DNA of 64,000 bases from an uncultured Acidobacteriota bacterium (GTDB lineage Bacteria > Acidobacteriota > Vicinamibacteria > Vicinamibacterales > CAVVIG01), in assembly GCA_902825985.1 (NCBI GenBank), contig CADEDC010000002.1:23226-87225 (forward strand), in the 5' to 3' direction. The notes under the pieces are model-generated. The model had not been told where the DNA came from and ran no database searches. It saw nothing but the letters and a program-made list of their open reading frames with translations. A program made the translations under genes and the position numbers. This document shows, piece by piece, positions 40,009 through 61,390 of the stretch (positions are counted from its first letter, which is position 1; every line of letters starts with the position of its first letter).

Positions 40009-40028
40009 TTCGGAGGTCCCGGAGGCAC

Positions 40029-44340: not shown

Positions 44341-45047
44341 ACCGCTCCGGGGCGTCGTCGGCCGCGCCAGCCCCAGATGTGGTCGGGCGCCGCCGGACCC
44401 AGGTGGAACAGGAGGTCGAGGATCGTGACCTGATGCGTGAATGGCGGATGGAGCTGCGGGTACTCGGGATAGCCGCCATAGTCCTTCCACTCGACCTGTA
44501 CCCCGATGCCGGCGAAGTCGGCCTCGCTGATGTACGAGCGGGCCGCCGGTCCTGACACGTAGACGTCGGCGCCGGCCTGCGACAGCAGCTCCAGCAGCCG
44601 CTCGCCTTTCGTCCTGGTCAGCCGGAACTCGGTCGACTGGCGGAACCGCGTGCCGATGCCGAGCAGGTCGCCGGCAATGCCGGTGACGAAGGCCTGGTTC
44701 AGCTCGGAGAGCGAGATCCACTGGCGGCCGAGGTACAGCTGCTCGAAGTAGGCGCCATACGTCTGAAAGTACGGCGCCTTCTCGTACGAAGCCTGCAGCA
44801 GGCTCCAGTGGCGCCGCGCCCATTCCGAGGACGGCAACCGAACGTCGCAGATCCGGCGCCGCTCGTCCTTGCCGACCGGGATGGTCAGCCAGCGGCCGCC
44901 GGCCGGTGTCTTGATCCAGTTGCGGTTGCGCCAGTCGTTCTTCGTGTACTGCACGTCGTCATAGAAGATGAACTCGTCGACATCGTGGATGATGTCGAAG
45001 TAGCCCTTCCAGGGGATGTAGTTCGACTGCAGGACGGCGATTCGCAT
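44337..45047 (-). CDS. WbqC-family protein
   Basis: Only the C-terminal 236 aa of ORF 44337..45833. MRIAVLQSNYIPWKGYFDIIHDVDEFIFYDDVQYTKNDWRNRN is the characteristic WbqC N-terminus. Confidence 0.85.
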   Translation of the reverse strand: MRIAVLQSNYIPWKGYFDIIHDVDEFIFYDDVQYTKNDWRNRNWIKTPAGGRWLTIPVGKDERRRICDVRLPSSEWARRHWSLLQASYEKAPYFQTYGAYFEQLYLGRQWISLSELNQAFVTGIAGDLLGIGTRFRQSTEFRLTRTKGERLLELLSQAGADVYVSGPAARSYISEADFAGIGVQVEWKDYGGYPEYPQLHPPFTHQVTILDLLFHLGPAAPDHIWGWRGRRRPGAV

Positions 45048-45784
45048 CAGCGCATGGCCGGCCGGGCCCGGCGCGCGACGAAGCACTTGCGCGTCATCTG
45101 CGCGGTGACGTCGAAGCCCGGATTGTTGAGGATGCGATCGGCGATCGCCCGGTCCACCCCGTCGTATCCCGATCCGGCGTCGTCGAAGCAGATCCAGCCG
45201 CCAGGCACGAGGTACGGCACGAGGCGATCGATGTCGTCCACGACCGCCCGATAACCGTGGTCGCCGTCGATGAACAACAGGCGGACCTGAAAGCCCGGCA
45301 GCGCGCTCGCGGCAAACGTGGCGGTGGTGCCGCGGTGCGCCGCGACGAACCGCTCGAGACCGCGGGCGTGGAGGTTGGCGTGGAATCCCTCCAGGATGTC
45401 GGGCGTCTCGTCGTAGCGCGGCGCCAGCTGTGCCTGGAACGGACCGGCCCACACGGTCTGCTCCTGATAGCCGCCGTAGCGCCGCCCGTCGATCTCGACC
45501 GAGCACGAGTAGCTGCCGTCGGTATTGCACCGCCAGTCGTCCCGCGCCGGAAACAGATCGATGCAGTGCACGCGGCCGCCGGTGTCGCGGGCCGCGGCCG
45601 CCAGGACGATCGCCGAGCGTCCGAGCCACGAGCCGACTTCCACCAGGTCGCCGGGCAGGCCGACCGTCGCCCGCGCCAGCAGCGACAGCGTGAAGAGTTC
45701 GTCGACCGGCGACCAGCCGGGCACACCGTCCACGAGCGCTTCGATCTCGGACATCAGCGAGGTCGCGCCGCCGGTCGTCGTCAC
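45047..45784 (-). CDS. Class I SAM-dependent methyltransferase (Methyltransf_24 / macrocin-O-MT-like)
   Basis: 245 aa. LVEVGSWLGRSAIVLAAAA...LLFIDGDHGYRAVVDDI...LVPGGWICFDD. Confidence 0.75.
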   Translation of the reverse strand: MTTTGGATSLMSEIEALVDGVPGWSPVDELFTLSLLARATVGLPGDLVEVGSWLGRSAIVLAAAARDTGGRVHCIDLFPARDDWRCNTDGSYSCSVEIDGRRYGGYQEQTVWAGPFQAQLAPRYDETPDILEGFHANLHARGLERFVAAHRGTTATFAASALPGFQVRLLFIDGDHGYRAVVDDIDRLVPYLVPGGWICFDDAGSGYDGVDRAIADRILNNPGFDVTAQMTRKCFVARRARPAMR

Positions 45785-46770
45785 GCCCGCCCCCGCATCT
45801 GTTCCACCAGCGTCGCGTAGCTGGCGCCTTCATGCGGCCAACGGGTCTCCTGCCAGTCGGGGCATTGGCCGCAGAAGCCGTGTCTCCGGTAGTCGCCGGT
45901 CAGATGGGCGCTGCGCAGGGCGCGATACAGCGGGCCCTGCCAGAGGTCGGCAATCGTCGTCGTCCGGTAGTCGGCGAGTGACGAGCCGTGCGTCCAGTCC
46001 GCCGGGCAGAAGGCGAGGGTTCCGCGCGGCGTCAGCACCACCCGCTCCCACGGATACACGCAGGGGCGCCGCTCGACGGCCGCGGTGCGCCGGCGCATCA
46101 CGGCGGCAACCGGGATGACGGCACCGGCCGCCGAGTGCAGGCGCCGCACGACGACGTCTGCAGCACCGGCGTCTCGCCAGAACCGCTCGAACGCGCCGGT
46201 CTCGTGCTGGTTCTCCGGCTGCTCGACATAACTGACGACGACGCGCGTCGCCGCCGCCGACTCGTGGCTGCGCCGAATCAGTCTGAGGACGTTGGCGCGG
46301 GTGATGGCCAGCGTGCCGCCCACCCGGATGCGCGCGTAGGTGTCCGGCTCGACGGCATCGATGCTGATGTCGACCATGTGCACGCCGGTGGCCAGCAGCC
46401 GCTCGACCCGCGGCTCGGTCAGCAGCACGCCATTGGTCGTCAGCGACACGAAGGTGCCCGCCCGCGCCACCGCGTCGGCCAGCATCGCGAATATCTGCCG
46501 ATGCGCCAGGGGCTCGCCCTCGCTGGTGAAGCGCACCTGCTGCACCACGCCGCGTCCGGCGGCCGCCACTTCGCCGACGGCCTTCGCGACGAGTTCCGGC
46601 TCCAGCATGCGGGCGGCGTAGCGATCGGACTGCTTGAACGCCGGATGTGGGCAGTGCGTGCACGCGAGGTTGCACACCTCGGTGGTGTCGATGATGAGCT
46701 GCGATGGGAACGCGGCGGTGAGCCGCCCGCCGAACGCGTAGTGCGGCGATCTGTCGGTGGTCACGGCCAT
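45781..46770 (-). CDS. Radical SAM enzyme with C-terminal Cys-rich (SPASM-like) region
   Basis: 329 aa. CNLACTHC is the Cx3Cx2C cluster motif. The C-terminal cysteines are spaced CVYPW...FCPADW...FCGQCPDW. Confidence 0.85.
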   Translation of the reverse strand: MAVTTDRSPHYAFGGRLTAAFPSQLIIDTTEVCNLACTHCPHPAFKQSDRYAARMLEPELVAKAVGEVAAAGRGVVQQVRFTSEGEPLAHRQIFAMLADAVARAGTFVSLTTNGVLLTEPRVERLLATGVHMVDISIDAVEPDTYARIRVGGTLAITRANVLRLIRRSHESAAATRVVVSYVEQPENQHETGAFERFWRDAGAADVVVRRLHSAAGAVIPVAAVMRRRTAAVERRPCVYPWERVVLTPRGTLAFCPADWTHGSSLADYRTTTIADLWQGPLYRALRSAHLTGDYRRHGFCGQCPDWQETRWPHEGASYATLVEQMRGRA

Positions 46771-46780
46771 GACTGGTCCT

Positions 46781-47962
46781 TCACTCGCCCGCCGCCTGCC
46801 GGCGGCCGCCGGACGCCAGCACGTCGGCCAGCGCGTCGCTCACGAAGCGGGCGTCGTCCGGCGTCATGGTGGCGCTGATCGGCAGGGTGAGGATCCGCTG
46901 CGCCAGGCGATCGGTGTTCGGCAGCGCGCCGGGCCGCGACCCGGCATAGAGCGGCATCAGGTGAATCGGCGGATAGTGCAGGCTGGCGCCGACGTTGCGG
47001 TCGCGCATCGCCTTCAGCACGTCGTGGCGGGACTGGCCCAGTCCGGCGACCGGCAGCTGGATGACGAACAGATGGCGCGCGTGACCGGGCGCCAGGATCC
47101 CGTCCTGCATCGCGATCGGCCAGCGCAGGGACGCCAGCGCCTCGACGTAGGTGCGCGCGATCGCCAACCGGCGGTCGGCGAACTCCGGCTGGCGCCGCAG
47201 CTGGACGCGCCCGAGCGACGCCTGCAGGTCGGTGTAGTTCATCTTGTAGCCGAGCTCCGTCACCGGCAGCGCCTCGAGCCGCCGTGGATCGGTGAACCGC
47301 TTCCAGGCGTCCTGCGGCAGGCCATGCTGCCGCAGCGAACGCAGGCGGTCCGCCTCGGGTCCGTCGGCGAGCGCAATGGCGCCGCCCTCCCCCGTCGACA
47401 GATTCTTGTTCGCGTAGAAGCTGAAGCAGGTCAGGTTGCCCGAGCCGCCCACCGGGCGGCCGGTCGCGTCGCGGGCACCCCACGCGTGGGCGGCGTCCTC
47501 GACCACGGCGATGTGGGCCGGAACCGCCCGTCGGATGGCCGCGACGTCCACGGCATAGCCGCCGTAGTGGACGACGATGACGGCGCGCGTACGCGGGCCC
47601 AGGACGGCGCGGACCGACGCGGGGGTCATGCACAGCGTCTCCGGCGACACATCGGCGAACACCACCGTTGCGCCGAGATGACGGGCGACGTTGGCCGTGC
47701 TGATCCAGGTCAGGCTCGGCACGACGACCTCGTCACCCGGCTTGATGCCGAGCACCAGCAGCGACAGAAACAGCGCCGACGTGCAGGAGTTGACCGCGAC
47801 CACCGCTCCCGCACCGCAGGCGGCGGCGAGTTCGCGCTCGAACGCCAGCGTCTCGGCGCCCATCCCGACCCAGCCGGTGCGCAGCACCTGCGAGACGGCC
47901 TGGATCTCCAGGTCGCCGAAATCGGGCTGGCCGAAGGGCAGATAGGTGTCGCGCCGAAGCAT
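46781..47962 (-). CDS. DegT/DnrJ/EryC1/StrS-family PLP-dependent sugar aminotransferase (copy 1)
   Basis: Trimmed from ORF 46781..48037; start at 47962 (MLRRDTYLPFGQPDFGDLEIQAV). 393 aa. NSCTSALFLSL and FSFYANKNLSTGEGG (the PLP Lys region). Confidence 0.9.
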   Translation of the reverse strand: MLRRDTYLPFGQPDFGDLEIQAVSQVLRTGWVGMGAETLAFERELAAACGAGAVVAVNSCTSALFLSLLVLGIKPGDEVVVPSLTWISTANVARHLGATVVFADVSPETLCMTPASVRAVLGPRTRAVIVVHYGGYAVDVAAIRRAVPAHIAVVEDAAHAWGARDATGRPVGGSGNLTCFSFYANKNLSTGEGGAIALADGPEADRLRSLRQHGLPQDAWKRFTDPRRLEALPVTELGYKMNYTDLQASLGRVQLRRQPEFADRRLAIARTYVEALASLRWPIAMQDGILAPGHARHLFVIQLPVAGLGQSRHDVLKAMRDRNVGASLHYPPIHLMPLYAGSRPGALPNTDRLAQRILTLPISATMTPDDARFVSDALADVLASGGRRQAAGE

Positions 47963-47981
47963 TGATGGCCACCCAGCGCCT

Positions 47982-47998
47982 GAGCAACCGATATGCCG
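47982..47998 (-). promoter_or_regulatory. Candidate internal sigma-54 promoter in the only large gap of the 17-gene operon
   Basis: The minus strand reads CGGCATATCGGTTGCTC, with GG-N10-GC spacing and TTGCT at -12. It is 14/17 identical to the cheA-upstream motif. It lies in the 201-nt gap between GT 48164..49255 and the aminotransferase start. Confidence 0.35.
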
Positions 47999-48163
47999 CG
48001 CGCCGCCCGGGCGCGCCCGGCGGCGTTTCCGCGCCATTCACCCGCCGGCGGCGACGCCCGACGGGCGACCGCCGGTCCGGTGCGCGACGTGGCGACGACA
48101 GCGATCGTCGGCCCGCCGTCACCGCCGGGACGCACGCGCCCCGAGGCCGGCGCGGCGGGCCGC

Positions 48164-49255
48164 CTACGACGCGCGGGCCCGCAGGCCGGCCGGGCGGCCG
48201 GCCACCGACCGGGCGGCGCCCTGCCGCACCGCCTCGTACTCCGCCATGTAGGCGCCGTACACCGCCCGCGGCGTGAAGTGCTGCCGGTACTGCGCCCGTG
48301 CCCGCTCGATCAGCAGTCGGCGCGCCGCCGGCGTCGTGCCCCGGACGGTGGCGATGGCACGCGCCAGGTCGAGCGCATCGGGCGCGTCGAAGAACACCGT
48401 GCCGTGCCCCTGTTCGTCCATCCCGGAGAAGTGGGCGTTGCGGCCGGCGATGACGGGAATGCCATCGCACCACGCCTCGACCAGTGCGAACGGCCGCCGC
48501 TCGTCGAACGCCGGCAACGTCAGGTAGTCGCAGCGCGCCGCAATCGCGCGCGGGTGATGACGCGGCCCGCACACGCGGATCCGGTCGTCGACCCCGAGCG
48601 CCATGGCGAGTTCGGCGCAGGTCCTCGCGTCCACCTGGCCGGCGAGGACGCAGAGGAGTCCGTCGCGCTGCGAGACGCAGGCCAGCGCCCTCAGCACGGT
48701 CTCGTGGTGCACGCTGGTGCTGCCGTGACCGACGGCGCACAGGACGTCGCCGCCCTGGGTCCGCCACGCCACCAGCTCACGGTCCAGGGCGCTCTCCTCG
48801 GCGGTGAGCCGCGGCGTCGCCTCGACGGCGTACGGGATGACCCGCACCTGCTGCGGCTGGACGCCGAGCGTCGTGACCAGCGACGCCGCCAGCGACGACG
48901 GCACGGTCACCAGGTCGGCGAGCGTCAGCGACGGGATGTCGGGCTGCGCCGCGCGAATCCCCTCGTCGTAGACCCAGTCGTGCAGCGTCGCAATCACCGG
49001 CGTCCGGGTGCCGGCCGGCTCGCGAAGCGCCAGGCTGACCGGGACGGCGGCGGTCCCATGGGCGTGGATCAGATCGAAGGTCGCGGCGCCACCGAGCGTG
49101 CGATCGACGAACTGCGCGATGCCGGCGTCGTCGCCGAATACCGCCATCGAGGCGACCGCGACGGTGTGGCGCTCTAGCCGCTGTTCGTCGATCAGACGCG
49201 ACACGGCCATCGCCCCGTGCGGGACGAGCGTCGACAACACATGGAGGATTCGCAT
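48164..49255 (-). CDS. Glycosyltransferase, GT4-like
   Basis: 363 aa. MRILHVLSTLVPHGAM and the C-terminal FDERRPFALVEAWCDGIPVIAG (E-x7-E-like). Confidence 0.8.
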   Translation of the reverse strand: MRILHVLSTLVPHGAMAVSRLIDEQRLERHTVAVASMAVFGDDAGIAQFVDRTLGGAATFDLIHAHGTAAVPVSLALREPAGTRTPVIATLHDWVYDEGIRAAQPDIPSLTLADLVTVPSSLAASLVTTLGVQPQQVRVIPYAVEATPRLTAEESALDRELVAWRTQGGDVLCAVGHGSTSVHHETVLRALACVSQRDGLLCVLAGQVDARTCAELAMALGVDDRIRVCGPRHHPRAIAARCDYLTLPAFDERRPFALVEAWCDGIPVIAGRNAHFSGMDEQGHGTVFFDAPDALDLARAIATVRGTTPAARRLLIERARAQYRQHFTPRAVYGAYMAEYEAVRQGAARSVAGRPAGLRARAS

Positions 49256-49257
49256 GA

Positions 49258-50409
49258 TCAGGCGGTCCGCTGCTTTCGAAGTGAGCCCACCGGCCGGGCA
49301 TGCACGGTGTGCGAGGCCGCCGCGGCGCGCGCCTGCGCACTGACGGCGAAGTCGTCGACGACGCGTTCGATGGCCGCGAGCACGGCGGTGGCGTCACCGC
49401 GGCTCACGTCGCGGCCGATGCTGTCGACCGCTCGCGCCAGCACCGCCGGATCGGCCGGCCGCTGGCGCGCCACCCAGATCCGCCGGTGCCGGGTCGGACA
49501 CATCCGGAGCCCCTGGCTGGAGAGCTCCTCGCGCAGCTTCTCGCCGGGCCGCAGGCCGATGTGCTCGACGGCGACGCGCACGAACCCGCCGCGGGCTTCG
49601 AGGTCGAGCAGCCGGTCGGCGAGCGTGCCGATGCGGACCGGCGCTCCCATGTCGAGCCAGTAGGTCTCGGCCCGCCGGGCCTGCAGCTCGGTCTTCATGA
49701 CCAGCGCGACCGCCTCACCGGCGGTCATGAAATAGCGCGTCGCCTCGGGATCGGTGATCGGGATCGGCCGGCCCTGACGCACCTGCTCGCGCATGATCGT
49801 CAGGACGCTGCCGCTGCTGCCGAGGACGTTGCCGAAACGGACGACGATCGGCTGGAAGGTCTTCGACGTCCGCGACAGCACCACGAACTCGGCGAATCGC
49901 TTGGTCGCGCCCATCACGCTTTGCGGCGTCGCCGCCTTGTCCGACGAGATGAGGACGAAACGGGCGCCGACCGCGCGTGCCGCGTCGACGGCGCAGCGCG
50001 TGCCGAGGATGTTCGCGTCGGCGGCGGCACAGACCGCCCGCTCCGCCATCGTGACGTGCTTGTAGGCCGCCGCGTGGTAGACGACGTGCGGACGGTGGGC
50101 GCGACACGCGTGGTCCATCGCACCGGCCCGTGCGACGTCGGTGAGGACGACCTCGAGCGGCAGGTCCGGAAACTGCCCGGACAGCTCACGTTCGACCTGG
50201 AACAGCGCCAGTTCCGACTGATCGAGCAGCACCAGCCGCTGCGGCGCCAGCGGCGCGATCCGGCGTGCCAGCTCCGAGCCGATCGAACCACCGGCGCCGG
50301 TGATCAGGACGCGCCGCCCGGCAAAGGCGCGGCGGTCGGCGTCGGTCAGCAGCCGGCGGACCGGCCGCTGCAGCAGGAACTCGAGATCGGCCTCCGAGAA
50401 CGCGGTCAT
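49258..50409 (-). CDS. CapD/PglF/WbpM-type NDP-sugar 4,6-dehydratase (soluble catalytic domain; candidate first step of nonulosonate synthesis)
   Basis: 383 aa. VLITGAGGSIGSELARRI, HAAAYKHV, ISSDKAATPQSVMGATKR (the polysaccharide biosynthesis CapD family). Confidence 0.85.
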   Translation of the reverse strand: MTAFSEADLEFLLQRPVRRLLTDADRRAFAGRRVLITGAGGSIGSELARRIAPLAPQRLVLLDQSELALFQVERELSGQFPDLPLEVVLTDVARAGAMDHACRAHRPHVVYHAAAYKHVTMAERAVCAAADANILGTRCAVDAARAVGARFVLISSDKAATPQSVMGATKRFAEFVVLSRTSKTFQPIVVRFGNVLGSSGSVLTIMREQVRQGRPIPITDPEATRYFMTAGEAVALVMKTELQARRAETYWLDMGAPVRIGTLADRLLDLEARGGFVRVAVEHIGLRPGEKLREELSSQGLRMCPTRHRRIWVARQRPADPAVLARAVDSIGRDVSRGDATAVLAAIERVVDDFAVSAQARAAAASHTVHARPVGSLRKQRTA

Positions 50410-51236
50410 CGCCCGCCTCCGGCCGGCGTGCCTGGCGCGGCGCCGCCGCCGAGCGCCTCGGGACGCCCGATCCCCGGCCGGCCGACGCCGCTCGCCGACG
50501 GTTCCTCCGCCGCGTCGGTGCCGCCGTTCAGGATGACGATGTCGACGCGGCGGTTGCGGCTGCGGCCGCCGTCGGTGGTGTTCGAGACCCGCGGCCGGTA
50601 CTCGCCATAGCCGGCGACCGACAGCCGGGCCGGCGACACGGCGTCACGGGCCATCAGAATCTCGACCACGCGGATCGCGCGCGCCGCCGACAGGTCCCAG
50701 TTCGAGGCGAACCGCGCCGTGTGGATCGGGACATCGTCGGTGTGCCCCTCGATGCGGATGGCGTTGGGCAACCGCTCGAGCGCCTGGGCGAGCCGCGCCA
50801 TCACCTGCTCCAGCGCCGGTGACAGGTCGTCGCTCCCGACCGGGAACGCCCCGGTCTCGGGGATCGAGATGATCAAGCCGCGCCGGTCGCGGTTGATCTC
50901 GACCTGGCCGGCCCGGATCGCCTCGTCGAGTTCGGTCTCGACCTGCGATCGTACGTAGGCGATCTGCGCGTCGAGCACCTCGCCGCCGTGCTGCAGCACT
51001 TCCCGACCGCTGCCGCCGGCGACGCCGTCGAGCGATGTCGCCGGCACCGCCGGCGTGTCGAAGGCGGTCTGCATGCCCTCGGCGACGCCCGACAGCTTGG
51101 CGACATCGACGGTCGAGGCCGCGTACAGAGTCGTGAAGAACGCGAAGAGGAGCGTCACGAAGTCGGCATAGGAGATGATCCAGCGGTCGCGGACCCCTTC
51201 CGACATCCGCCGGCGGCGTTCGAACGCGCGCCTCAT
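50406..51236 (-). CDS. motB: Flagellar stator protein MotB-like (set 2), inside the sugar operon
   Basis: 276 aa. DRWIISYADFVTLLFAFFTTLY holds the TM segment and the conserved Asp. OmpA-like C-terminus (IEGHTDDVP...NWDLSAARAIRV...NRRVDI). ATGA overlaps at both ends (50406-09, 51233-36). Confidence 0.85.
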   Translation of the reverse strand: MRRAFERRRRMSEGVRDRWIISYADFVTLLFAFFTTLYAASTVDVAKLSGVAEGMQTAFDTPAVPATSLDGVAGGSGREVLQHGGEVLDAQIAYVRSQVETELDEAIRAGQVEINRDRRGLIISIPETGAFPVGSDDLSPALEQVMARLAQALERLPNAIRIEGHTDDVPIHTARFASNWDLSAARAIRVVEILMARDAVSPARLSVAGYGEYRPRVSNTTDGGRSRNRRVDIVILNGGTDAAEEPSASGVGRPGIGRPEALGGGAAPGTPAGGGR

Positions 51237-52036
51237 GCCGCCCGCCTCACGGTCTGCCGCTCGCGCAGCCGGACGTAGGCGTCGAGCTGCTCCTCGAGCT
51301 GCCGCGGATGCATGCCCTGTTGAATCGAGACCACCGCCTCGACGATCAACTCGCGCCGCAAGGCTGCCATGCGCGTCTGGTTCCGCACGCGCGCCGCCAG
51401 CGGCATGAAGACGAGGTTCGCGGAGCCGACGCCGTAGACCGTGGCGACGAACGCCACGGCGATACCGGCACCGAGCTTCGACGGCGCCGCCAGGTTCTCC
51501 ATGACGTGGATCAGACCGAGCACGGCGCCGAGAATCCCGAGTGTCGGGGCGTAGCCCGACGCCGACTCGAGGACGTGCGCCACCTCATCGTCGAACTCCT
51601 CCTGGGCGTGGCTTTCGGTCTCCATCGTCCGGCGTACCGCGTCCGGTGGCAGGCCGTCGATCGCCAGACCCAGCGCCCGCCCGAGAAACCGATCGCCGGT
51701 TTCCATCGCCGTATTCTCGAGCGACATCAGACCCTTCTTCTTCGAGCGCAGCGCCATGCTGGACAGCTCGGCCACCAGCGCCCGCATCGCCGGCGGCGGC
51801 GTGACGAAGGCATCCCGGACGGCGGACACCGTGCGGGCCAGGGTGGCGAGCGGGAAGCTCACCAGCAGCGCCGCTGCGGTTCCGCCGAAGACGACCAGCG
51901 CCGCGGTCGGCTGCACCAGCGACTGCAGGCTGCCGCCTTCGATCCGCTGCGCCACGATCACCGCCGCGAACGCCAGGCCGAGGCCGGCCAGCCCACTGAA
52001 GTCGAACTGTCGACGAGACGGAGGCTTCACGGTCAT
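51233..52036 (-). CDS. motA: Flagellar stator protein MotA-like (set 2; MotA/TolQ/ExbB channel family)
   Basis: 267 aa. TM segments and PTLGILGAVLGLIHVM...AFVATVYGVGSANLVFMPLA. The start overlaps the cytidylyltransferase stop (ATGA at 52033-36). Confidence 0.85.
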   Translation of the reverse strand: MTVKPPSRRQFDFSGLAGLGLAFAAVIVAQRIEGGSLQSLVQPTAALVVFGGTAAALLVSFPLATLARTVSAVRDAFVTPPPAMRALVAELSSMALRSKKKGLMSLENTAMETGDRFLGRALGLAIDGLPPDAVRRTMETESHAQEEFDDEVAHVLESASGYAPTLGILGAVLGLIHVMENLAAPSKLGAGIAVAFVATVYGVGSANLVFMPLAARVRNQTRMAALRRELIVEAVVSIQQGMHPRQLEEQLDAYVRLRERQTVRRAA

Positions 52037-52755
52037 CCGACATCTGACGCGGTCGTATGGTCGCCGGACACCGGCATGGTCAGCGCTCGCGCCGCCGCTC
52101 TGAGGATCTCGACAAGCGGCGCCGGCTCGCCCGGCATGGCGCCGGCCAGCGCGAAGACGCGGCGCATGAAGGCGAGGTCGGCGCCCGTGTCGACTGTCAG
52201 GCGGACGGCCGGGCGGCGGACGACGCCGGGTGCCAGCGCCGGCAGCGCGAAGAACCGGCGGTCGCGCCGGATGAGCGGCGTCACGTGTTCCCGATCGAAC
52301 GGATCGACCGCCAGACCGGCCGCCCGCGCCAGCGCTTCCACGGTGACCGCTTCCACCGCCGCGCCATGCGGCAGGCCGTGCTCGACCACATGATCGGCGC
52401 CGCTCCGGTGCAGCAGCGACAACGTCCGCGCCGCGGCGTCCATGTCGACCGCCGGGTTGTCGGCCGTCGCGCGGATGACCTCGGTGAGCCCGTGGCGGAC
52501 CGCCGCGGCGTAGTAGCGGCCGAGCACGTCTTCGGTCGCGCCCCGGAACACCGATGCACCGAGCCGCGCCGCCTCCGCGGCGACACGGTCGTCGTCGGCG
52601 AGTTCAGTCGTGGCGACGATCACCGTCAGTCCCGACGTCTTCAGGCGCTCGATGCAGTGGGCGAGCATCGAGCGGCCGGCGATGGGCGCCAGCACCTTCC
52701 CCGGAAGACGCGACGAGCCCATGCGGGCCTGCAGAATGATGGCAGCGTTCGGCAT
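52033..52755 (-). CDS. Cytidylyltransferase (SpsF/PseF-like CMP-nonulosonate synthetase family)
   Basis: C-terminal 240 aa of ORF 52033..53403. MPNAAIILQARMGSSRLPGKVLAPIAGRSML...TADNP is the typical SpsF/acylneuraminate cytidylyltransferase N-terminus. Confidence 0.8.
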   Translation of the reverse strand: MPNAAIILQARMGSSRLPGKVLAPIAGRSMLAHCIERLKTSGLTVIVATTELADDDRVAAEAARLGASVFRGATEDVLGRYYAAAVRHGLTEVIRATADNPAVDMDAAARTLSLLHRSGADHVVEHGLPHGAAVEAVTVEALARAAGLAVDPFDREHVTPLIRRDRRFFALPALAPGVVRRPAVRLTVDTGADLAFMRRVFALAGAMPGEPAPLVEILRAAARALTMPVSGDHTTASDVG

Positions 52756-53762
52756 CAGGCAACCTCGGCGATCGGCGTCGGCTGCAGCGGCTCGAGCGAC
52801 ACGTGCCGCTCGTCGACGAACACCGACGCCTCGTAATTCGTCATCCACAGGTTTTCCTTGAACTGCCCGATGATCGGCGTGACCCGGAAACCGCGGACCA
52901 GTTCGAGCAGCAGGCGCGGCACGTCGACCCCGGCGGCAATCGTCAGGCCGATGCCGCCGGAGAATCGCGGATTGATCTCGAACACCACCGGCCGTCCCTG
53001 CACGACCCGGCACTGGATGTTCACCGGCCCGACGAACGGCAGCACGCCGGCACACTGACGGGCCAGGGCGAGCAGCGACTCGTCGCGGACCGTGCGACCG
53101 CGGTCGATCACTCCGGCGCGAATCACCACCCGCTCGCGCGGGACGATCGCCAGCGGCTCGCCGCCGAAACTGCACAGCATGTCCAGCGTGAACTCCGGAC
53201 CGTCGAGATACTCCTGCACGATCGCGTCGTCGACGTAGTCGACGAAGAAGTCGAGCTCGCGCGCCGAGCGGATCGGGTAGGCGCCGACGCCGCCACGGCC
53301 GACGCGCGGCTTGACGAACAGCGGGAAACCGTGGCCGGCCGGCAGCTCGGCGGGTAGCCACGTGGGGGCCGCCGCCACCCCCCGTGCCACCAGGCTGCGG
53401 CACAACGCGTACTTGTCGTTGCAGAGCGCCGTCGTCGCCGACGGCGACACGGCGACGCGGATGCCCGCCGCCTCGAAACGCGGCTGGGCGTCGGCGAACG
53501 CGGTCAGCTCATCGTCGATCGTCGGGACGACCAGGCGGACGCGTTCGTGGCGGGCGATCCGGAGGATCTCGTCGATGTAGTCCGGCGCCGACGACAGCGG
53601 CACGCGGTACGCCGCATCCGCATAGTGGACGGCCGGCGACAGCGGGTTCACGTCGGTGGCGACCACCCGGCCGCCGCCGAGCTGCGCCAGCGCCGAGCGG
53701 AAGCCGTTGACCAGCGCGACGCGGCGCGACGCCGCGGTCACCAGGACGTTAGGCGACGACAC
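52755..53762 (-). CDS. ATP-grasp domain enzyme
   Basis: Trimmed from ORF 52755..53882. GTG start at 53762, preceded by AGGAGG. 335 aa. LVTAASRRVALV, FVKPRVGRGGVG, IVQEYLDGPEFTLD, FEINPRFSGG. Confidence 0.8.
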   Translation of the reverse strand: MSSPNVLVTAASRRVALVNGFRSALAQLGGGRVVATDVNPLSPAVHYADAAYRVPLSSAPDYIDEILRIARHERVRLVVPTIDDELTAFADAQPRFEAAGIRVAVSPSATTALCNDKYALCRSLVARGVAAAPTWLPAELPAGHGFPLFVKPRVGRGGVGAYPIRSARELDFFVDYVDDAIVQEYLDGPEFTLDMLCSFGGEPLAIVPRERVVIRAGVIDRGRTVRDESLLALARQCAGVLPFVGPVNIQCRVVQGRPVVFEINPRFSGGIGLTIAAGVDVPRLLLELVRGFRVTPIIGQFKENLWMTNYEASVFVDERHVSLEPLQPTPIAEVA

Positions 53763-54840
53763 GTGGCCTCCTCTCCTCGAGCGGCACGATGAGGTCGCGT
53801 TCCCGGAGCGGCGCCCCTGCCGCCACTGGCCGGGCGGTGCGCCGGCCGATGAACTCGGCCAGGCGTCCGGCAACCACCGCATGTGCCGGCCGCAACGCCG
53901 TCAGGTCGGCCGCTTCGATGACGTGATCGGCGGGCAGCGCTCTGGCGACGTACAGTCCGCGCCGGCTGGGGATGACGTTGGCCGACTCGGCTGGCAGGCA
54001 GACCTTCTCGCCGCTGCCGAGGGCGGCGACGGCGCGCGCCGCGTCGCGAACCGCGGCCGCCAGTTCCGTCGGGTCGCTCGACACGGCATCGTCGATCGAG
54101 CCGTCGCCGTGGGCGAGGACCAGGTGGCGCTCGTACAGACAGGCGCCGAGGGCCACGGCCATCGGCACCGCACACGTGTCGTCGGCATGGTCGGACAGGC
54201 CGACCGGGACGCCCAGGGCGTCGGCGAGCGTCTGGATGGCGCGCAGGTTCTCGCTGCCGCGCGGGACGGGATAGGCGGACACACAATGGAGCATCGCGAC
54301 GTGCCGGGCCCCGGCCTGCCGGGCGATGCCGAGCGCGTGCGACGCATCGGTCCGGCTGCCCATCCCGGTGGAGATCACCAGCGGCAGCCCGGTCTGCCCG
54401 GCGCGGGCGATCAGCCCGTCCCACGTCAAGTCGCCGCTGGCGATCTTGATGGCGTCGACGCCGACGCGCTCGAGCAACGCGACGGCGTCGAGCGAGAACG
54501 GCGTCGCCATGACGGCCAGGCCGCGCTGGCGCGCACGCTGCACGATGGCGCGGTGCGCCGCTTCGTCCAGTTCGAACGCGGCGAAGAATCCACGCAGCGA
54601 GTCGCTGCGAACGTGCGCCGGAGCCGGGCAGGCGGCGGCGACCAGGTCGTCGGCGAACAGCGTCTGCAGCTTGATAGCCGAGGCGCCGGCGTCCGCCGCC
54701 GCATCGACGAGGGCCAGCGCCTTGTCGGCGACGCCGCCATGATTCAGGCCAATCTCGGCGATGACGAACAGCGGATGGCCGGCGCCGACCGGGCGTCCGC
54801 CTATCTCGAACTCGGGGCTACGACGATCACGCGACATCAC
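53749..54840 (-). CDS. neuB: NeuB-family nonulosonic acid synthase (PseI/LegI/NeuB-type) with C-terminal SAF domain
   Basis: 363 aa. FVIAEIGLNHGG, IKLQT, KIASGDLT, VISTGM, LHCVSAYP, GLSDH, and the C-terminal RRGLYVARALPADHVIEAADL. Confidence 0.9.
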   Translation of the reverse strand: MMSRDRRSPEFEIGGRPVGAGHPLFVIAEIGLNHGGVADKALALVDAAADAGASAIKLQTLFADDLVAAACPAPAHVRSDSLRGFFAAFELDEAAHRAIVQRARQRGLAVMATPFSLDAVALLERVGVDAIKIASGDLTWDGLIARAGQTGLPLVISTGMGSRTDASHALGIARQAGARHVAMLHCVSAYPVPRGSENLRAIQTLADALGVPVGLSDHADDTCAVPMAVALGACLYERHLVLAHGDGSIDDAVSSDPTELAAAVRDAARAVAALGSGEKVCLPAESANVIPSRRGLYVARALPADHVIEAADLTALRPAHAVVAGRLAEFIGRRTARPVAAGAPLRERDLIVPLEERRPRVVA

Positions 54841-55525
54841 GACTCCCTTCCCGTCGGCTCACCAGGCCGGCCACGGCGTCCGGCACCTCACGCATCGAGC
54901 GGACGACGGCGTCGGCGGCGCTGTGCCCGGCGACCCCCGGCTGACGGCTGACGCGCACGGTTCGCATCCCCAGCGCCGCGGCGCCGCGGATGTCGCACTC
55001 CTCGTTGTCGCCGACGAACACGGCGCGGTGGGGTCCGACACCCAACTGCGTCAACGCCGCGTCGAAAGGCTCACGATCGGGCTTGCCGCGCCCGGAGCCG
55101 CACTCACCGGCGAAGACGACGGCATCGACGAGCGGCCGCAGGCCGAGCGCCGCGATCTTGGCCGCCTGGACGCGGGGGGTGCCGTTCGTGACGACGGCGA
55201 GGCGCCAGTCGGGCCGCAACGCGGCGAGCGCCGCGCGCGACGCCGGCGGCAGGCGCAACGACGGCCGATGCGAACGGCTGACGTCGACCAGCGCCGTCGT
55301 CAGCGACTCGGGCCAGCCGTACAGCGCCAGGCACAGCTGGATCTCGCGGCCGCGCTGCGGCCCGCGGTAGGCACGCGACAGCCTGCGGAAGACGTCGCGC
55401 GCCGGCACGTCGAAGCGGGCACTCAAGTGTTGCGCCATCGCCGCGAACGCGCTGAGCACGAAGCGGCGCTGCGGATAGAGCGTGTCGTCGAGGTCGAAGA
55501 GCACCGCGCACCGGTTACGCAGCAT
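54827..55525 (-). CDS. HAD-superfamily hydrolase/phosphatase
   Basis: Trimmed from ORF 54827..55642; start at 55525. 232 aa. VLFDLDDTLY (motif I), VVTNG (II), GKPD...FVGDNEECDIRGA (III/IV). Confidence 0.85.
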   Translation of the reverse strand: MLRNRCAVLFDLDDTLYPQRRFVLSAFAAMAQHLSARFDVPARDVFRRLSRAYRGPQRGREIQLCLALYGWPESLTTALVDVSRSHRPSLRLPPASRAALAALRPDWRLAVVTNGTPRVQAAKIAALGLRPLVDAVVFAGECGSGRGKPDREPFDAALTQLGVGPHRAVFVGDNEECDIRGAAALGMRTVRVSRQPGVAGHSAADAVVRSMREVPDAVAGLVSRREGSRDVA

Positions 55526-56519
55526 GTCGACCACCCTTCGAATGGCGGGCCAGTTCGCGCACCCGGTCGGCGACGCGGAAGATGCCGCGGCCATCGACGA
55601 GCGCCTGCCCGGCTGCCGCCAGCCGCCGCATGCCGCGCGCATCGTGCAGCAGGTGCGCCAGTTGCGGCGCCAGCCGCGTCAGGTGACGGGGGTTGCTGGC
55701 GCTGCCGCCGTCGCGGAGCGCGCCGGCATCAGCCAGGGCACGGATGGTCAAGGCCTGGGCCGGCGTCAGGGCGATCCCGATCGCGGGCGTGCCGATGGCG
55801 CACGCCTCGTAGGCGGTGACACCGCCCGCCAGGACGGCGACGCTGGCGCGCGCCAGCTCCTCACCGAGGCCATGGCGCGCCATCACCCACTCGCCGTGGC
55901 GCAGCGGCGGCAACCGCTGGGCGTCGGTGAAGCCGGCGGCAATCCGCACGCGCAGTCCCGGGTGAGCGGCCGCCAGTGATGCCGAGAGCCGGGCCGCGAG
56001 CGCGAAGACGTAGCTGCCGCCGCCGAGCGCCAGCAGGACGCGCCGGGGCTCGACGATCGCCGGCCGCCGTTCGCGCCAGCGGACCACGTCCGGGTCGAGC
56101 ATGGCGTAGGCCGGTCCCCGCAGGTCGCCCAGCCGATCGCGCATCGCCCGGTGCGGGCGGACGCTGCCGTCGATCCCGAGGTCCGACGTGACATAGCCGA
56201 GCCCGAGGTCGTGCACGGTCGCGACCGGCACGCCGAGCCGGCGGGCACGGATCACCCAGGCGTCCGCGTGCTCCGCCGACGGGTCGTCGATGACGAGGAC
56301 GCACGGCCGGCCGCCGTCGCGCAGCGCCTGCGTCCCGTCGTCGGCCAGCGAGAATCCGAGACGCACCGCAGCCTGCCGCGTGCGCGCCGTACCACGCAGC
56401 GACACCAGCGGCGGCACGCCGAGGGCCCGCGCCAGTGACCGGCAGCGAATCAGGTGGCCAAACCCGAGGCGCGGACCGGCCGCCGCACGGAACAGGACGC
56501 GCAATTCGTGCGCCGCCAT
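55515..56519 (-). CDS. pseG: PseG-like UDP-sugar hydrolase (GT28 C-terminal-like fold)
   Basis: C-terminal 334 aa of ORF 55515..57506. RAAAGPRLGFGHLIRCRSLARAL matches the PseG G.GH..RC..LA motif. The C-terminal half (LLALGGG...VLAGGVTAYEACAIGTPAI) is GT-B like. Confidence 0.7.
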   Translation of the reverse strand: MAAHELRVLFRAAAGPRLGFGHLIRCRSLARALGVPPLVSLRGTARTRQAAVRLGFSLADDGTQALRDGGRPCVLVIDDPSAEHADAWVIRARRLGVPVATVHDLGLGYVTSDLGIDGSVRPHRAMRDRLGDLRGPAYAMLDPDVVRWRERRPAIVEPRRVLLALGGGSYVFALAARLSASLAAAHPGLRVRIAAGFTDAQRLPPLRHGEWVMARHGLGEELARASVAVLAGGVTAYEACAIGTPAIGIALTPAQALTIRALADAGALRDGGSASNPRHLTRLAPQLAHLLHDARGMRRLAAAGQALVDGRGIFRVADRVRELARHSKGGRHAA

Positions 56520-56521: not shown

Positions 56522-57685
56522 CTAGCGCAGCCTCCGCACGTGGCGGCGCACCGCCGCGATCACGGCGTCGACGTCGGCCTCGCGCATGCCGGCCGACAGC
56601 GGCAGCGACAGCGTACAGTCCGAGACGCGTTCCGCCACTGGCCACATGCCGCGGCGGAATCCGAAGGTTTCGGCGTAGTAGGTGAAGAGGTGCACGGCGC
56701 GGAAGTGCACGCTGGTCATGATGCCGCTCTCGCGCAGTGCCGCCGCGAGCGCATCGCGGCTCCAGCCCGACTCGGGTTCGACCAGCACCGTGTACAGGTG
56801 CCGCGCGTGCCGGTCGCCGGCGGCGACCGGTGCCGGACGGGTCAACGGCAGATCGGAGAACGCCTCGTCGTAGCGCTGCCAGATGGCGTCGCGGCGGCGC
56901 CATCGCTCGTCCAGACGCGCGAGCTGCACGAGGCCGATCGCGGCCATGACATCCGGCATGTTGTACTTGAAGCCGGGCGTCACGACGTCGTACAGCGCGG
57001 TCCCGGTGCGCGCGTAGCGTGTCCAGCCGTCGCGGCTCATGCCGTGCAGCGACATCCGCCGGGCGGTGTCGGCCCAGGCGGCCGAATGCGTCGTCAGCAT
57101 GCCCCCTTCGCCGGTCGTCAGGTTCTTCGTCGCGTAGAAGCTGAAGCAGGTGAAGTCGGCGGTTCCGCCAATCTTCGCCCCCGCCGACCGGCCTTCGACG
57201 CAGTGGGCGGCATCCTCGATGATCCGGGCGTCGTGGCGGAGGCCGAGCGCGGCGAACGCCGTGGTGTCCACCGGCCGCCCGGCGTAGTGCACCGGAATGA
57301 TCGCCCGCGTCCGCCCGGTGATCGCGGCGTCGACGGCGGCGGGATCGAGGTTCCAGGTCGTCGAATCGATGTCGGCGAAGCGCGGTGTCGCGCCGACGTG
57401 CACCACGGTGTTGGCCGTCGCACAGAAGGTGAGCGGCGTCGTGATCACGTCGTCGCCAGGGCCGACGCCGGCGGCGAGCAGCGACAGGTGCAGCGCCGCC
57501 GTGCACGAGTTGACGGCCACGGCGTGATCGACGCCGACGTAGGTGGCGAATGCCCGCTCGAATTCCTTGACGCGTGGACCGCTCGACAGCCAGCCGGACT
57601 CGAGCGCGGCGACGGCGGCCGCAATCTCCTCCGCGCCGATGACCGGCGGGGCGAAGTCCACGGCGGCGCCTGGCGGCGGCGACAT
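56522..57685 (-). CDS. DegT/PseC-family PLP-dependent sugar aminotransferase (copy 2)
   Basis: Trimmed from ORF 56522..57859; start at 57685. 387 aa. GWLSSGPRVKEFE, NSCTAALHLSL, FSFYATKNLTTGEGG. Confidence 0.9.
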   Translation of the reverse strand: MSPPPGAAVDFAPPVIGAEEIAAAVAALESGWLSSGPRVKEFERAFATYVGVDHAVAVNSCTAALHLSLLAAGVGPGDDVITTPLTFCATANTVVHVGATPRFADIDSTTWNLDPAAVDAAITGRTRAIIPVHYAGRPVDTTAFAALGLRHDARIIEDAAHCVEGRSAGAKIGGTADFTCFSFYATKNLTTGEGGMLTTHSAAWADTARRMSLHGMSRDGWTRYARTGTALYDVVTPGFKYNMPDVMAAIGLVQLARLDERWRRRDAIWQRYDEAFSDLPLTRPAPVAAGDRHARHLYTVLVEPESGWSRDALAAALRESGIMTSVHFRAVHLFTYYAETFGFRRGMWPVAERVSDCTLSLPLSAGMREADVDAVIAAVRRHVRRLR

Positions 57686-58206
57686 CAGTGCCGCCCCTCG
57701 ATTCCCAGGTCGATGGTTGCCAGCTCGCGGGCCGGGCTCGGCGGCTTGCCGGCCCGGGCGCTGGCGTGGGCCAGCATGGCGGCGGCGAGATGCACGCGGC
57801 AGCCGGCCCGTTCGACGCCGTCGACCTGCAGGAACGGCGCCCGCCAGGTCAGGCGACACGGCCGCCAGCCGTAGTCGAGGTCGGCGCCGTTCAGCACGTC
57901 GACGAGCGTCCCGTCGAGATCGAAGATCTGCACGCGCGCGTTGCCGTAGTCGGCGACCGCCAGCCAGTAGCCGTCGGCCGGCTCGATCCCGGTGTCTTCG
58001 TCGAACGTCGGTGCGACGAGTGCGAGATCCAGCGGGACGTCGAAGGTCCCGAGGGCGGTACCGCGACGGCCGATGGTGAACAGCTCGTCGCCGGTCGCGG
58101 CGGCGGTGACGACGATGCGATGACCGCTCAGGTCGACGCGATAGGTCCGCACCTCCCCGGTGCGCAGCGTGACGCGCACCGAGCCGTGATCGAAGGGCGC
58201 GCTCAT
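57685..58206 (-). CDS. Small hypothetical protein with NHL-repeat-like segments
   Basis: 173 aa. GRRGTALGTFDVPLDLAL and YWLAVADYGNARVQIFDLDGTLV resemble NHL blades (VAD..N.R.Q.F...G). Overlaps both neighbours, by 1 nt with pseC (57685) and by an ATGA (58203-58206) with 58203..58811. Confidence 0.5.
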   Translation of the reverse strand: MSAPFDHGSVRVTLRTGEVRTYRVDLSGHRIVVTAAATGDELFTIGRRGTALGTFDVPLDLALVAPTFDEDTGIEPADGYWLAVADYGNARVQIFDLDGTLVDVLNGADLDYGWRPCRLTWRAPFLQVDGVERAGCRVHLAAAMLAHASARAGKPPSPARELATIDLGIEGRH

Positions 58207-58833: not shown

Positions 58834-58850
58834 GAGCGAGAAGGCTGCCA
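58834..58850 (-). promoter_or_regulatory. Candidate sigma-54-like -24/-12 promoter for the glycosylation operon
   Basis: The minus strand reads TGGCAGCCTTCTCGCTC, with GG-N10-GC spacing. It is 14/17 identical to the + strand motif at 59914-59930. It lies 23-39 nt upstream of the ATG at 58811. Confidence 0.4.
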
Positions 58851-61360: not shown

Positions 61361-61390
61361 GCCGCGCCGCCGCAGGGAGAACAGGTTCGA

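Follow-up and report, generated by a model that had tools for sequence, protein, structure and literature searches.

The window, that is, the whole 64-kb stretch of DNA that was analysed, contains a pair of stator genes, motC and motD, within a long run of genes for a sugar pathway of the nonulosonate type, which diverges from the flagellin gene fliC. The genes of this putative operon are, in reading order:

58203-58811, reverse strand: u1, first operon gene (start-codon map)
57685-58206, reverse strand: u2 (start-codon map)
56522-57685, reverse strand: PseC-like aminotransferase (Pfam/NCBIfam; PseC 348 bits, cut-off 423.5)
55515-56519, reverse strand: PseG-like protein (Pfam/NCBIfam; PseG 52.6 bits, cut-off 153.55)
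54827-55525, reverse strand: HAD protein (Pfam/NCBIfam)
53749-54837, reverse strand: NeuB/PseI-like synthase (PseI 228.5 bits, cut-off 340.25; NeuB 239.5 bits, cut-off 399.65)
52755-53762, reverse strand: ATP-grasp protein (Pfam/NCBIfam)
52033-52755, reverse strand: cytidylyltransferase (cyt), 240 aa (CTP_transf_3, PF02348; PseF 28 bits, cut-off 205.7)
51233-52036, reverse strand: motC (motA2), stator A subunit, 267 aa, MotC/PomA/MotP type
50406-51236, reverse strand: motD (motB2), stator B subunit, 276 aa, with transmembrane Asp D25, plug and OmpA-like peptidoglycan-binding domain
49258-50409, reverse strand: PseB/CapD-like 4,6-dehydratase, 383 aa (Polysacc_synt_2, PF02719, 275 bits)
48164-49255, reverse strand: GT4 glycosyltransferase, start of the downstream variable block (41290-49255)
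46781-47962, reverse strand: second DegT aminotransferase (degT2), variable block
45781-46770, reverse strand: radical SAM/SPASM protein, variable block
45047-45784, reverse strand: TylF-like methyltransferase (homology to annotated genes of a relative, locus L006)
44337-45047, reverse strand: WbqC-like protein (homology to annotated genes of L006)
41290-44340, reverse strand: Maf/MptE-like flagellin glycosyltransferase candidate, variable block

The 12 genes that begin with u1 (58811) and end with the glycosyltransferase (48164) are packed with a largest gap of 2 nt, as all 11 junctions are either overlaps of 1, 4, 11 or 14 nt or 2-nt gaps. Further downstream, the gap of 126-200 nt upstream of degT2 may hold another promoter. 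The enzymes suggest a pseudaminic- or legionaminic-acid-like pathway of the nonulosonate type. None of the operon's enzymes reaches a Pse equivalog cut-off (PseB, C, G, I, F), and the dehydratase scores 116 bits against TIGR03589 (PseB), far under the cut-off of 407.75. No PseH-type acetyltransferase is present among the operon genes scanned with Pfam and NCBIfam. The first gene, u1, has no Pfam or NCBIfam match. An exhaustive profile search for u1-like proteins returned 534 cluster representatives, and the 10 that were scanned with Pfam gave no informative match over the u1-like region. The AF2 model of u1 is confident for a C-terminal four-helix bundle only, and a Foldseek search of the PDB with this model gave nothing under an E value of 0.5.

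The initial annotation had described a second stator pair of 267 and 276 aa between the cytidylyltransferase and the dehydratase of a nonulosonate operon, joined to its neighbors by three 4-nt ATGA overlaps. Both reading frames are present, the flanking genes are confirmed by their Pfam matches (PF02348 upstream, PF02719 downstream), and a base-by-base reading gives an ATGA at each of the three junctions: ATG 52036-52034 and TGA 52035-52033 at cyt/motC, ATG 51236-51234 and TGA 51235-51233 at motC/motD, and ATG 50409-50407 and TGA 50408-50406 at motD/dehydratase. The pair is thus embedded in a nonulosonate-type operon adjoining fliC, and its co-translation with the sugar genes is probable from the start/stop overlaps. 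Only codons 1 and 3 of motC are start candidates ahead of the conserved fold, which begins at D12, and the dehydratase, whose Rossmann motif comprises residues 38-44, has no alternative start from codon 1 to codon 60. The cyt/motC and motD/dehydratase junctions are therefore fixed. In motD, an alternative ATG is possible at codon 11. The 240-aa form of the cytidylyltransferase agrees with the gene calls in relatives. The overlaps cannot be taken as a feature specific to the stator because nearly every junction in the operon has one, as does the junction between the two genes of the first stator pair. A recent horizontal insertion of motCD was likewise rejected: GC and GC3 (0.89 and 0.92 for motC and motD) equal those of the neighboring genes, and the gene order is kept down to 43% MotC identity.

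In an NCBIfam scan the best matches of the pair are PRK09109 and PRK09038. MotC scores 257.3 bits against NF006583 (PRK09109), above the equivalog cut-off of 237, and exceeds the Pfam cut-offs of both MotA_ExbB (91.3 bits) and MotA_N (30.4 bits). It matches MotA and PomA chains in the PDB over its full length with E values of 1e-50 to 1e-25. All 128 homologs compared share two prolines in TM3 and TM4, P164 and P212; E107 is conserved, and position 99, a lysine in the window, is R, K or H in nearly all of the same homologs. Judging from the 8-residue spacing and the MotA/PomA alignments, the prolines and the charged pair would correspond to P173, P222, R90 and E98 of E. coli. The AF2 model of MotC (pLDDT 83) has helices at residues 63-78, 84-101, 103-112 and 116-126, ahead of the long TM3 helix. 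The TGI4 class of flagellar ion transporters (PMC12505986) is defined by a cytoplasmic torque-generating interface in which TM2 and TM3 are separated by four short helices. The modeled pattern fits this class by a direct count of the helices, rather than with the pipeline of that study.

MotD matches Pfam MotB_plug with 58.5 bits (cut-off 24) and OmpA with 70.1 bits (cut-off 27.2), and it aligns over its full length with the MotB of C. sporogenes in the PDB (E 1e-41). Its best NCBIfam match is MotD (NF006541), at 203.1 bits and under the cut-off of 283. D25, the conserved aspartate noted earlier in SYADFVTLLF, is the same in all 45 relatives compared, as are GHTD164-167, SNW178-180 and NRR228-230. 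Both the plug and the peptidoglycan-binding motifs, for which a check had been proposed, are kept. MotD is, by these matches, a MotB-family, MotD-like protein without certification as a MotD equivalog. A comparison with TolQR and ExbBD had also been called for. MotC falls with the flagellar stators, its score against TolQ (TIGR02796) being a negligible 20.8 bits with a cut-off of 221, and the NCBIfam scan gave no match of the pair to ExbB or Zorya-type families. The pair is a predicted intact flagellar stator of the MotC/MotD type (PomAB/MotPS-like, TGI4).

The window contains another stator pair:

27760-28635, reverse strand: motA1, E. coli type (TIGR03818, MotA1, 346 bits, cut-off 303.8)
26882-27763, reverse strand: motB1 (PRK09041, MotB, 224 bits, under the cut-off of 277)

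These genes are also joined by an ATGA overlap. The two pairs share 25% and 28% identity and are of different family types, which bears out the earlier statement that they are clearly distinct. MotCD would be the second of two stators that serve one flagellum, with the E. coli-type MotAB encoded 22 kb away. The same two stator lineages, an E. coli-type MotAB and a shorter MotC/MotD, are found in Pseudomonas aeruginosa and P. putida.

The order cyt-motC-motD is found in 6 metagenomic loci (L005-L010) and also in 14 loci from species representatives, and MotC identity falls as low as 43%. When loci were retrieved via the cytidylyltransferase alone, motC followed cyt in 56 of the 63 informative ones. 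All loci with the full order and a taxon name belong to the Acidobacteriota (Vicinamibacterales), and the order is absent in about 60 loci of other phyla. The arrangement is kept in dozens of relatives, in a whole group of Acidobacteria from soil, and is not unique to one genome, the outcome that would have refuted the original proposal. A start/stop overlap joins cyt to motC in 38 of 68 loci and motD to the dehydratase in 24 of 28. The stator marks a seam: the sugar block on one side, running from the aminotransferase to the cytidylyltransferase, is constant, and the block on the other, with the dehydratase, the glycosyltransferases and Maf, is variable. The order from u1 to the ATP-grasp gene is the same in relatives, whereas the content of the downstream block differs between them. 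In one subclade, flbD (Pfam PF06289, E about 1e-21) lies between cyt and motC. What had looked like an intergenic spacer of 210-270 nt in this subclade is this gene; the window itself has no flbD.

The following motifs and genes are relevant to the expression of the two stators:

58835-58850, reverse strand: sigma54-type -24/-12 motif TGGCAGCCTTCTCGCT, about 24 nt ahead of the start codon of u1, putative operon promoter
59914-59929, forward strand: another sigma54-type motif, TGGCAACGTTCTCGCT, ahead of fliD and fliS
59987-61360, forward strand: fliD, downstream of TGGCAACGTTCTCGCT
61361-61783, forward strand: fliS (FliS Pfam match)
58934-58960, forward strand: sigma28-type motif of fliC, TAAAG-N15-CCGATTA, one exact match in the window with 0.03 expected
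59036-59833, forward strand: fliC
29407-29433, reverse strand: sigma28-like motif TCAAG-N15-CCGATTG, one mismatch, upstream of an HD-domain gene and motA1B1

The sigma54 consensus, TGGCAC-N5-TTGCW, has GG at -24 and GC at -12. TGGCAGCCTTCTCGCT has both dinucleotides at the canonical spacing and is the sole exact match to the sigma54-type pattern in the window. The exact pattern recurs at the syntenic position in 7 relatives, with 2 off-target matches in 90 loci, and TGGCA..T.GCT accounts for 9 of 10 invariant columns in an alignment of 9 operon-upstream regions. As the motif is only about 24 nt from the annotated start of u1, the leader would be very short. The window genes that were searched with Pfam include none with an RpoN or sigma54-activator domain. 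The sigma54-type motif upstream of fliD is kept in most relatives, mostly 72-90 nt before the fliD match and 48-116 nt in a few. The fliC motif recurs 105-125 nt ahead of the gene in about 20 relatives. The sigma28-like motif upstream of motA1 scores 11/12 in L011, L021, L022 and L041, and cheA is also preceded by a sigma28-type motif. A sigma70 scan of 41-60 kb found one match with 0.6 expected, and a terminator scan found 4 with 4.8 expected.

By combining these observations, it is possible to propose how the stator comes to lie among sugar genes. We consider it quite probable that the product of motCD is an ordinary flagellar stator, that it is expressed from one operon together with the enzymes of flagellin glycosylation, and that the two stators are timed in two tiers. 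In this Vicinamibacterales lineage, motCD would belong to a long, gap-free operon that also carries the nonulosonate pathway and Maf-type glycosyltransferases for flagellin. A sigma54-type promoter like that of fliD probably drives this operon, and fliC, motAB and the che operon would be served by sigma28-type promoters. MotCD and the glycosylation enzymes would then be co-transcribed in dependence on sigma54 and made together, one regulatory tier ahead of flagellin and MotAB, with start/stop overlaps coupling their translation, as they would almost throughout the operon. It appears that the sugar genes became interleaved with a late flagellar supercluster, fliS-fliD-fliC / u1-u2 / (flbD)-motCD / motAB / che. 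The likeliest reason for the conserved order is that late flagellar functions are regulated together, rather than a new role of the stator. L022 and the flbD subclade may be regulated differently from the operon in the window.

A somewhat different possibility, to which we give a low but appreciable probability, is that the stator type is matched to the filament glycan and that selection keeps both in one operon, to be inherited and dosed together. MotCD might, for example, serve under high load or on surfaces, in combination with a filament that carries glycans, and it would still be flagellar. The persistence of the linkage in most loci down to about 43% MotC identity, the retained overlaps on either side of the pair and the different promoter types at the two stators are consistent with such co-adaptation. 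The stator and the sugar genes do, however, come apart. In L105, L112 and L143, the sugar operon is present and the stator is absent. These three loci are nested among stator-bearing operons in a tree of the ATP-grasp and cytidylyltransferase proteins (trees are simple neighbor-joining without support values), where L112 pairs with L106, a locus with a degenerate motC and without motD. In L010, motD is truncated. A few lineages have lost or degraded the stator and retained the sugar genes. Conversely, u1-motCD of L022 adjoins fliC and the sugar genes are absent; in L061, too, the stator stands beside fliC and sugar genes are missing. Furthermore, 66 embedded and 62 non-embedded MotC homologs are indistinguishable at the key residues checked, E107 and the basic residue at 99/100 being equally conserved in both, and a vertically inherited operon keeps its order without any need of functional matching.

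It is improbable that the position of motCD is a historical accident without regulatory meaning, the pair being expressed from a promoter of its own inside the upstream gene. The neighborhood fliC-motCD does seem to be ancestral, as fliC adjoins motCD-cheR in the Terriglobia locus L061 and motCD in L022; L022 also has a sigma28-like site just before motC, and the sugar genes downstream of the stator vary. Against this, the window and its nearer relatives have no intergenic space at the pair, and the 400 nt upstream of motC hold no conserved sigma28 or sigma54 motif, the two types scanned for, in 19 of 20 relatives. The overlaps flanking the stator in relatives are ATGA or GTGA, and their conservation on both sides argues for coupled translation from a single mRNA.

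There is only a very slight chance that MotCD (with FlbD, where present) has a second, non-motor role, in which ion flux or the protein itself is needed for glycosylation of flagellin or for export or assembly of glycosylated flagellin, a role that would account for the retention of the pair, in coupled translation with a sugar-nucleotide enzyme on either side, throughout a deep clade of Acidobacteriota. Least credible of all is a recruited channel. The initial annotation had suggested a MotAB-like proton channel that energizes a glycosylation or export step; such a channel, its flagellar role lost or shared, would energize glycosylation, sugar export or flagellin export. Only the genomic position, with coupled translation amid sugar-nucleotide enzymes, speaks for it, but the flanking enzymes are all from soluble families that need no membrane energization, the rotor-interface charges, prolines, plug, aspartate and peptidoglycan-binding motifs are all kept, and equally so in embedded and non-embedded homologs, the TolQ, ExbB and Zorya-type scores are negligible, flbD accompanies motCD in a subclade, and the sugar operon persists in loci without motCD.

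The co-expressed, ordinary stator can be compared with several known systems. In Pseudomonas, motCD is at the end of the che operon (cheA-cheB-motC-motD) and is not known to lie among sugar genes. Here, in a different phylum, it lies between a cytidylyltransferase and a dehydratase behind a sigma54-type motif, and MotD is under its NCBIfam cut-off. The sugar locus resembles the pseudaminic and legionaminic acid loci with Maf of Campylobacter, Helicobacter, Aeromonas and Clostridium, where PseC-, PseG-, PseI (NeuB)-, PseB- and cytidylyltransferase-like genes and an MptE-like (Maf) gene are also found beside fliC. It differs from them in the missing PseH-type acetyltransferase, the extra ATP-grasp and HAD genes, the stator pair inside and the scores below Pse cut-offs. 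Campylobacter Cj1293 may be under sigma54 control.

The dual-stator literature is represented by, e.g., PMC11633141 and PMC9765564. The flbD-motA-motB module is known from the F3 region of C. difficile (PMC10889297); such modules, in Firmicutes, spirochaetes and others, have the same short stator type, in the same order as in the flbD subclade, but in the known cases are located inside hook/basal-body operons and not among sugar genes. The earlier claim that no stator pair was known inside a flagellin glycosylation pathway is too strong, given that the accessible part of a report on Clostridium beijerinckii NCIMB 8052 describes a flagellar glycosylation island encoding MotA and MotB along with a CMP-Pse pathway and Maf genes (PMC13317340). 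As described there, this is a single-strain case in a hypervariable region of a Firmicute, and that part of the account reports no conserved order, start/stop coupling to sugar genes or promoter analysis. In the loci studied here, unlike the C. beijerinckii island as far as it is described there, the order is kept throughout a deep clade of Acidobacteriota, with the pair between two pathway genes. Searches of the literature on stators and glycosylation and on Vicinamibacter flagella turned up no account of this arrangement in Acidobacteria.

There is nothing unusual about the stator proteins as such; the finding chiefly concerns gene organization and regulation. If the model holds, the two stators would be wired to two tiers of the flagellar hierarchy, MotCD to a sigma54-type and MotAB to a sigma28-type tier, providing a clean natural system for stator choice in dual-stator motors. 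It would also show how flagellin glycosylation is timed ahead of flagellin synthesis in the Acidobacteriota, a phylum whose flagellar biology is almost unstudied.

Two stator pairs lie on the minus strand of the window, the second of them inside an operon for sugar biosynthesis:

51233-52036, minus strand: motC (motA2), second pair, 267 aa
50406-51236, minus strand: motD (motB2), second pair, 276 aa
27760-28635, minus strand: motA1, first pair
26882-27763, minus strand: motB1, first pair

A base-by-base reading of the minus strand bears out the coordinates and lengths that the initial annotation gave to motC and motD, together with its three ATGA overlaps, at 52036-52033 (cytidylyltransferase to motC), 51236-51233 (motC to motD) and 50409-50406 (motD to the 4,6-dehydratase). 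A start-codon map upholds the annotated starts of motC, motD and the dehydratase. Ahead of the conserved MotC fold, which begins at D12, the only starts available are codon 1 (ATG) and codon 3 (GTG). The dehydratase has no start codon between codons 1 and 60, and its Rossmann motif occupies residues 38-44. In motD an alternative start is possible at the second ATG, codon 11.

The following comparisons identify the second pair as a flagellar stator and dispose of a TolQR/ExbBD assignment. MotC matches the Pfam families MotA_ExbB and MotA_N and exceeds the curated threshold of NCBIfam PRK09109, a MotC-type "flagellar motor protein", with 257 bits against 237; against the TolQ family it scores 21 bits, and the cut-off of 221 is not reached. 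MotD matches MotB_plug and OmpA, and its highest-scoring NCBIfam family is MotD, with 203 bits, under the cut-off of 283. Solved flagellar stators match both proteins across their full length: for MotC these are MotA1 of Paenibacillus TCA20 (1e-50), MotA of C. sporogenes, B. subtilis and C. jejuni, and PomA of Vibrio, and for MotD it is MotB of C. sporogenes (1e-41). In the AlphaFold model of MotC (pLDDT 83) four short helices lie between TM2 and TM3, a predicted layout that agrees with TGI4, a flagellar ion transporter class defined in PMC12505986; the same paper reports TGI4 as well as TGI5 stators in Acidobacteria. The first pair is of the E. coli type (TIGR03818, 346 bits against 303.8) and shares just 25% and 28% identity with the second, so that the two are clearly distinct, as had been proposed. 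An E. coli-type pair together with a MotC-type pair gives the organism a predicted dual set of MotAB and MotCD-like stators.

The source organism has 70% GC, and its closest named relatives are Vicinamibacterales (Acidobacteriota). Its predicted sugar operon holds 17 genes and is divergent from fliC, fliD and fliS, which are on the plus strand:

58811-41290, minus strand: operon, in order u1 (58203-58811), u2 (57685-58206, 173 aa, no family match), PseC-like aminotransferase, PseG-like protein, HAD hydrolase, NeuB/PseI-like synthase, ATP-grasp enzyme, cytidylyltransferase, motC, motD, PseB/CapD-like dehydratase, GT4 glycosyltransferase, second aminotransferase, radical SAM/SPASM protein, TylF-like methyltransferase, WbqC-like protein, 1016-aa Maf (MptE-like, 41290-44340)
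32032-33243: the other Maf (MptE-like) gene of the island
34803-36722: AsnB-like amidotransferase

The WbqC-like and TylF-like assignments were made by homology to annotated genes of a related locus, L006. None of the operon enzymes reaches a Pse equivalog cut-off, and PseH was not found in the operon; the predicted pathway is therefore called nonulosonate-type only, and its product is left general. All the way from u1 to the GT4 gene, neighbouring genes either overlap (by 1, 4, 11 or 14 nt) or stand 2 nt apart. The ATGA overlaps of the stator genes therefore follow the rule of the operon and are no exception to it. The base composition of motC and motD is the same as that of their neighbours.

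Between 30 and 41 kb there are more glycosyltransferases, the second Maf, the AsnB-like enzyme and methyltransferases, and beyond this block lie motA1B1, signalling kinases and the che cluster. With its roughly 28 kb, between 30.1 and 58.8 kb, the island of flagellin glycosylation genes is very large. Several GT2/GT4 glycosyltransferases and methyltransferases also occupy 30104-44340, and the gene content suggests a complex, further-modified glycan. U2 is conserved as the second operon gene in most relatives. U1 has a paralogue, 33% identical, at 29500-30102 on the plus strand, which heads a glycosyltransferase unit at the opposite end of the island. The u1 family, of about 200 aa, has 534 representatives in a library of 1.84 billion proteins; no informative Pfam match was found among the 10 representatives scanned, nor any informative structural match, and the u1 model is confident for a C-terminal four-helix bundle. 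Elsewhere in the window, an 869-aa chemoreceptor (14811-17420, minus strand) combines a Bac_globin domain (truncated-haemoglobin type, PF01152) and PAS domains with an MCP signalling domain; Bac_globin is an unusual sensor module in a chemoreceptor.

The arrangement is not unique to this genome, since the gene order recurs in relatives. The contexts of MotC homologues at 76, 74, 67, 57, 56 and 56% identity share the layout fliS-fliD-fliC and, divergent from it, u1-u2-DegT-PseG-like-HAD-NeuB-ATP-grasp-cytidylyltransferase-MotC-MotD, usually followed by dehydratase-GT-Maf. A tblastn survey with the window's proteins, taking one genome per species, found cytidylyltransferase-motC-motD 14 times, in each case at a locus with the label Acidobacteriota, Vicinamibacterales or Vicinamibacteraceae, with MotC identity as low as 43%. 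About 60 loci from Desulfobacterota, Nitrospirota, Myxococcota, Beta- and Gammaproteobacteria and Elusimicrobia lacked this order, as did Terriglobia and Bryobacteraceae. A second scan, anchored on the cytidylyltransferase and blind to the stator, gathered 80 metagenomic loci, 63 of them with enough downstream sequence; motC directly follows the cytidylyltransferase in 56 of these 63. At the cytidylyltransferase/motC junction, 38 of 68 loci offer a start codon that overlaps the preceding stop by 4 or 1 nt; at the motD/dehydratase junction 24 of 28 do.

Several features mark the stator pair as a flagellar module that can part from the sugar genes. In one subclade of related loci (L015, L019, L020, L028, L041, L054, L076, L127, L128, L138, L149, L156-L158, L162, L165 and L169), the cytidylyltransferase and motC are separated by 210-270 nt that hold a small gene overlapping the cytidylyltransferase stop (GTGA/ATGA), for example at about 9680-9990 in L054. 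It encodes FlbD (PF06289, E ~1e-21), and the embedded module there is flbD-motC-motD; flbD is not present in the window. The order flbD-motA-motB is a known flagellar one, as in the F3 region of C. difficile (PMC10889297). In L107, L112 and L143 the dehydratase directly follows the cytidylyltransferase (gap 84-112 nt), and in L105 a glycosyltransferase does so (gap 3 nt), with the stator missing in between. In a neighbour-joining tree of the ATP-grasp enzyme and cytidylyltransferase, L105, L112 and L143 are nested among stator-bearing operons, and the sister of L112 is L106, whose motC is degenerate or divergent and whose motD is gone. In L010 motD is a 106-aa OmpA-only frame (10713-11033). 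These operons look like secondary losses which the sugar genes outlived, and in some lineages the stator seems to be in decay. Conversely, u1-motC-motD adjoin fliC without sugar genes in L022 (Vicinamibacteraceae), and motC-motD-cheR adjoin fliC-fliD-fliS in L061 (Terriglobia). In L041, with the order motD-dehydratase-motA1-motB1 (11652-14479), the dehydratase gene alone parts the two stators, and in L164 (8195-12253) they are likewise almost adjacent. Embedded and non-embedded copies conserve equally well the charges of the rotor interface, both prolines, the Asp, the plug and the motifs for peptidoglycan binding. As a whole, flbD, the separability, the order in L041, this equal conservation and the matching base composition give the appearance of sugar genes interleaved with a late flagellar supercluster, rather than of a stator captured by the sugar pathway.

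Promoter-like motifs set the two stators apart:

fliC upstream region: sigma28-type motif TAAAG-N15-CCGATTA, 1 exact match in the window against 0.03 expected
59914-59929, plus strand: sigma54-like motif ahead of fliD, the u1 motif with one change
29433-29407, minus strand: sigma28-like motif with one mismatch, upstream of the HD-domain gene and motA1B1
20448-20422, minus strand: sigma28-like motif with one mismatch, upstream of the cheA operon

The fliC motif is kept 105-125 nt ahead of fliC in about 20 relatives. On the opposite strand, about 24 nt ahead of the u1 ATG, lies TGGCAGCCTTCTCGCT, whose GG and GC are spaced like the -24 and -12 elements of a canonical sigma54 promoter. The window contains this motif once as an exact match, and 7 relatives have it exactly in the syntenic position; across 90 loci there were 2 off-target matches, and close variants occur in the other relatives. 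In an alignment of nine upstream regions, 9 of the 10 invariant columns form TGGCA..T.GCT, and a second conserved block consists of the fliC sigma28 motif in reverse complement. The fliD motif occurs in most relatives, mostly 72-90 nt (in a few 48-116) ahead of the fliD match. The motA1 motif is kept in four relatives; a sigma28-like site precedes motA1 by 50 nt in L041. No conserved sigma28 or sigma54 motif was found within 400 nt upstream of motC in the loci scanned, except L022. The immediate upstream neighbour of motA1B1, which stands behind the sigma28-like motif, encodes an HD/HD_5-domain protein (28648-29544, minus strand). It is possibly an HD-GYP-type phosphodiesterase and may connect the first stator with cyclic-di-GMP turnover.

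From these motifs we infer a two-tier model for the two stators. A putative sigma54 tier would comprise MotCD and the glycosylation enzymes together with fliD, and a putative sigma28 tier MotAB, flagellin and the chemotaxis genes; together the motifs would sketch a flagellar hierarchy with two sigma factors in this acidobacterium. Building the glycosylation machinery ahead of flagellin would be physiologically sensible. Against the sigma54 reading of the u1 motif, the resulting leader would be short, and the window has neither rpoN nor an activator.

Pseudomonas offers well-studied dual MotAB/MotCD stators; motCD there come after cheA-cheB and are not known to lie among sugar genes. The initial annotation knew of no stator embedded in a flagellin glycosylation pathway. 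A report on Clostridium beijerinckii NCIMB 8052 places MotA and MotB within a flagellar glycosylation island (PMC13317340), and to that extent the arrangement has a precedent. In the literature searched, no description was found of a deeply conserved, gap-free stator between two pathway genes in Acidobacteriota, with a promoter class unlike that of the other stator. The component parts are ordinary; the wiring is unusual.

Of the earlier interpretation, a genuine second stator inside the operon stands, and its recruitment to energise glycosylation finds no support. The arrangement is neither a surprising mechanism nor the key to a long-standing question. The placement of MotCD in the glycosylation, putatively sigma54, tier is the new and testable point of the model, and the locus is a regulatory and evolutionary curiosity that offers a possible handle on stator choice.
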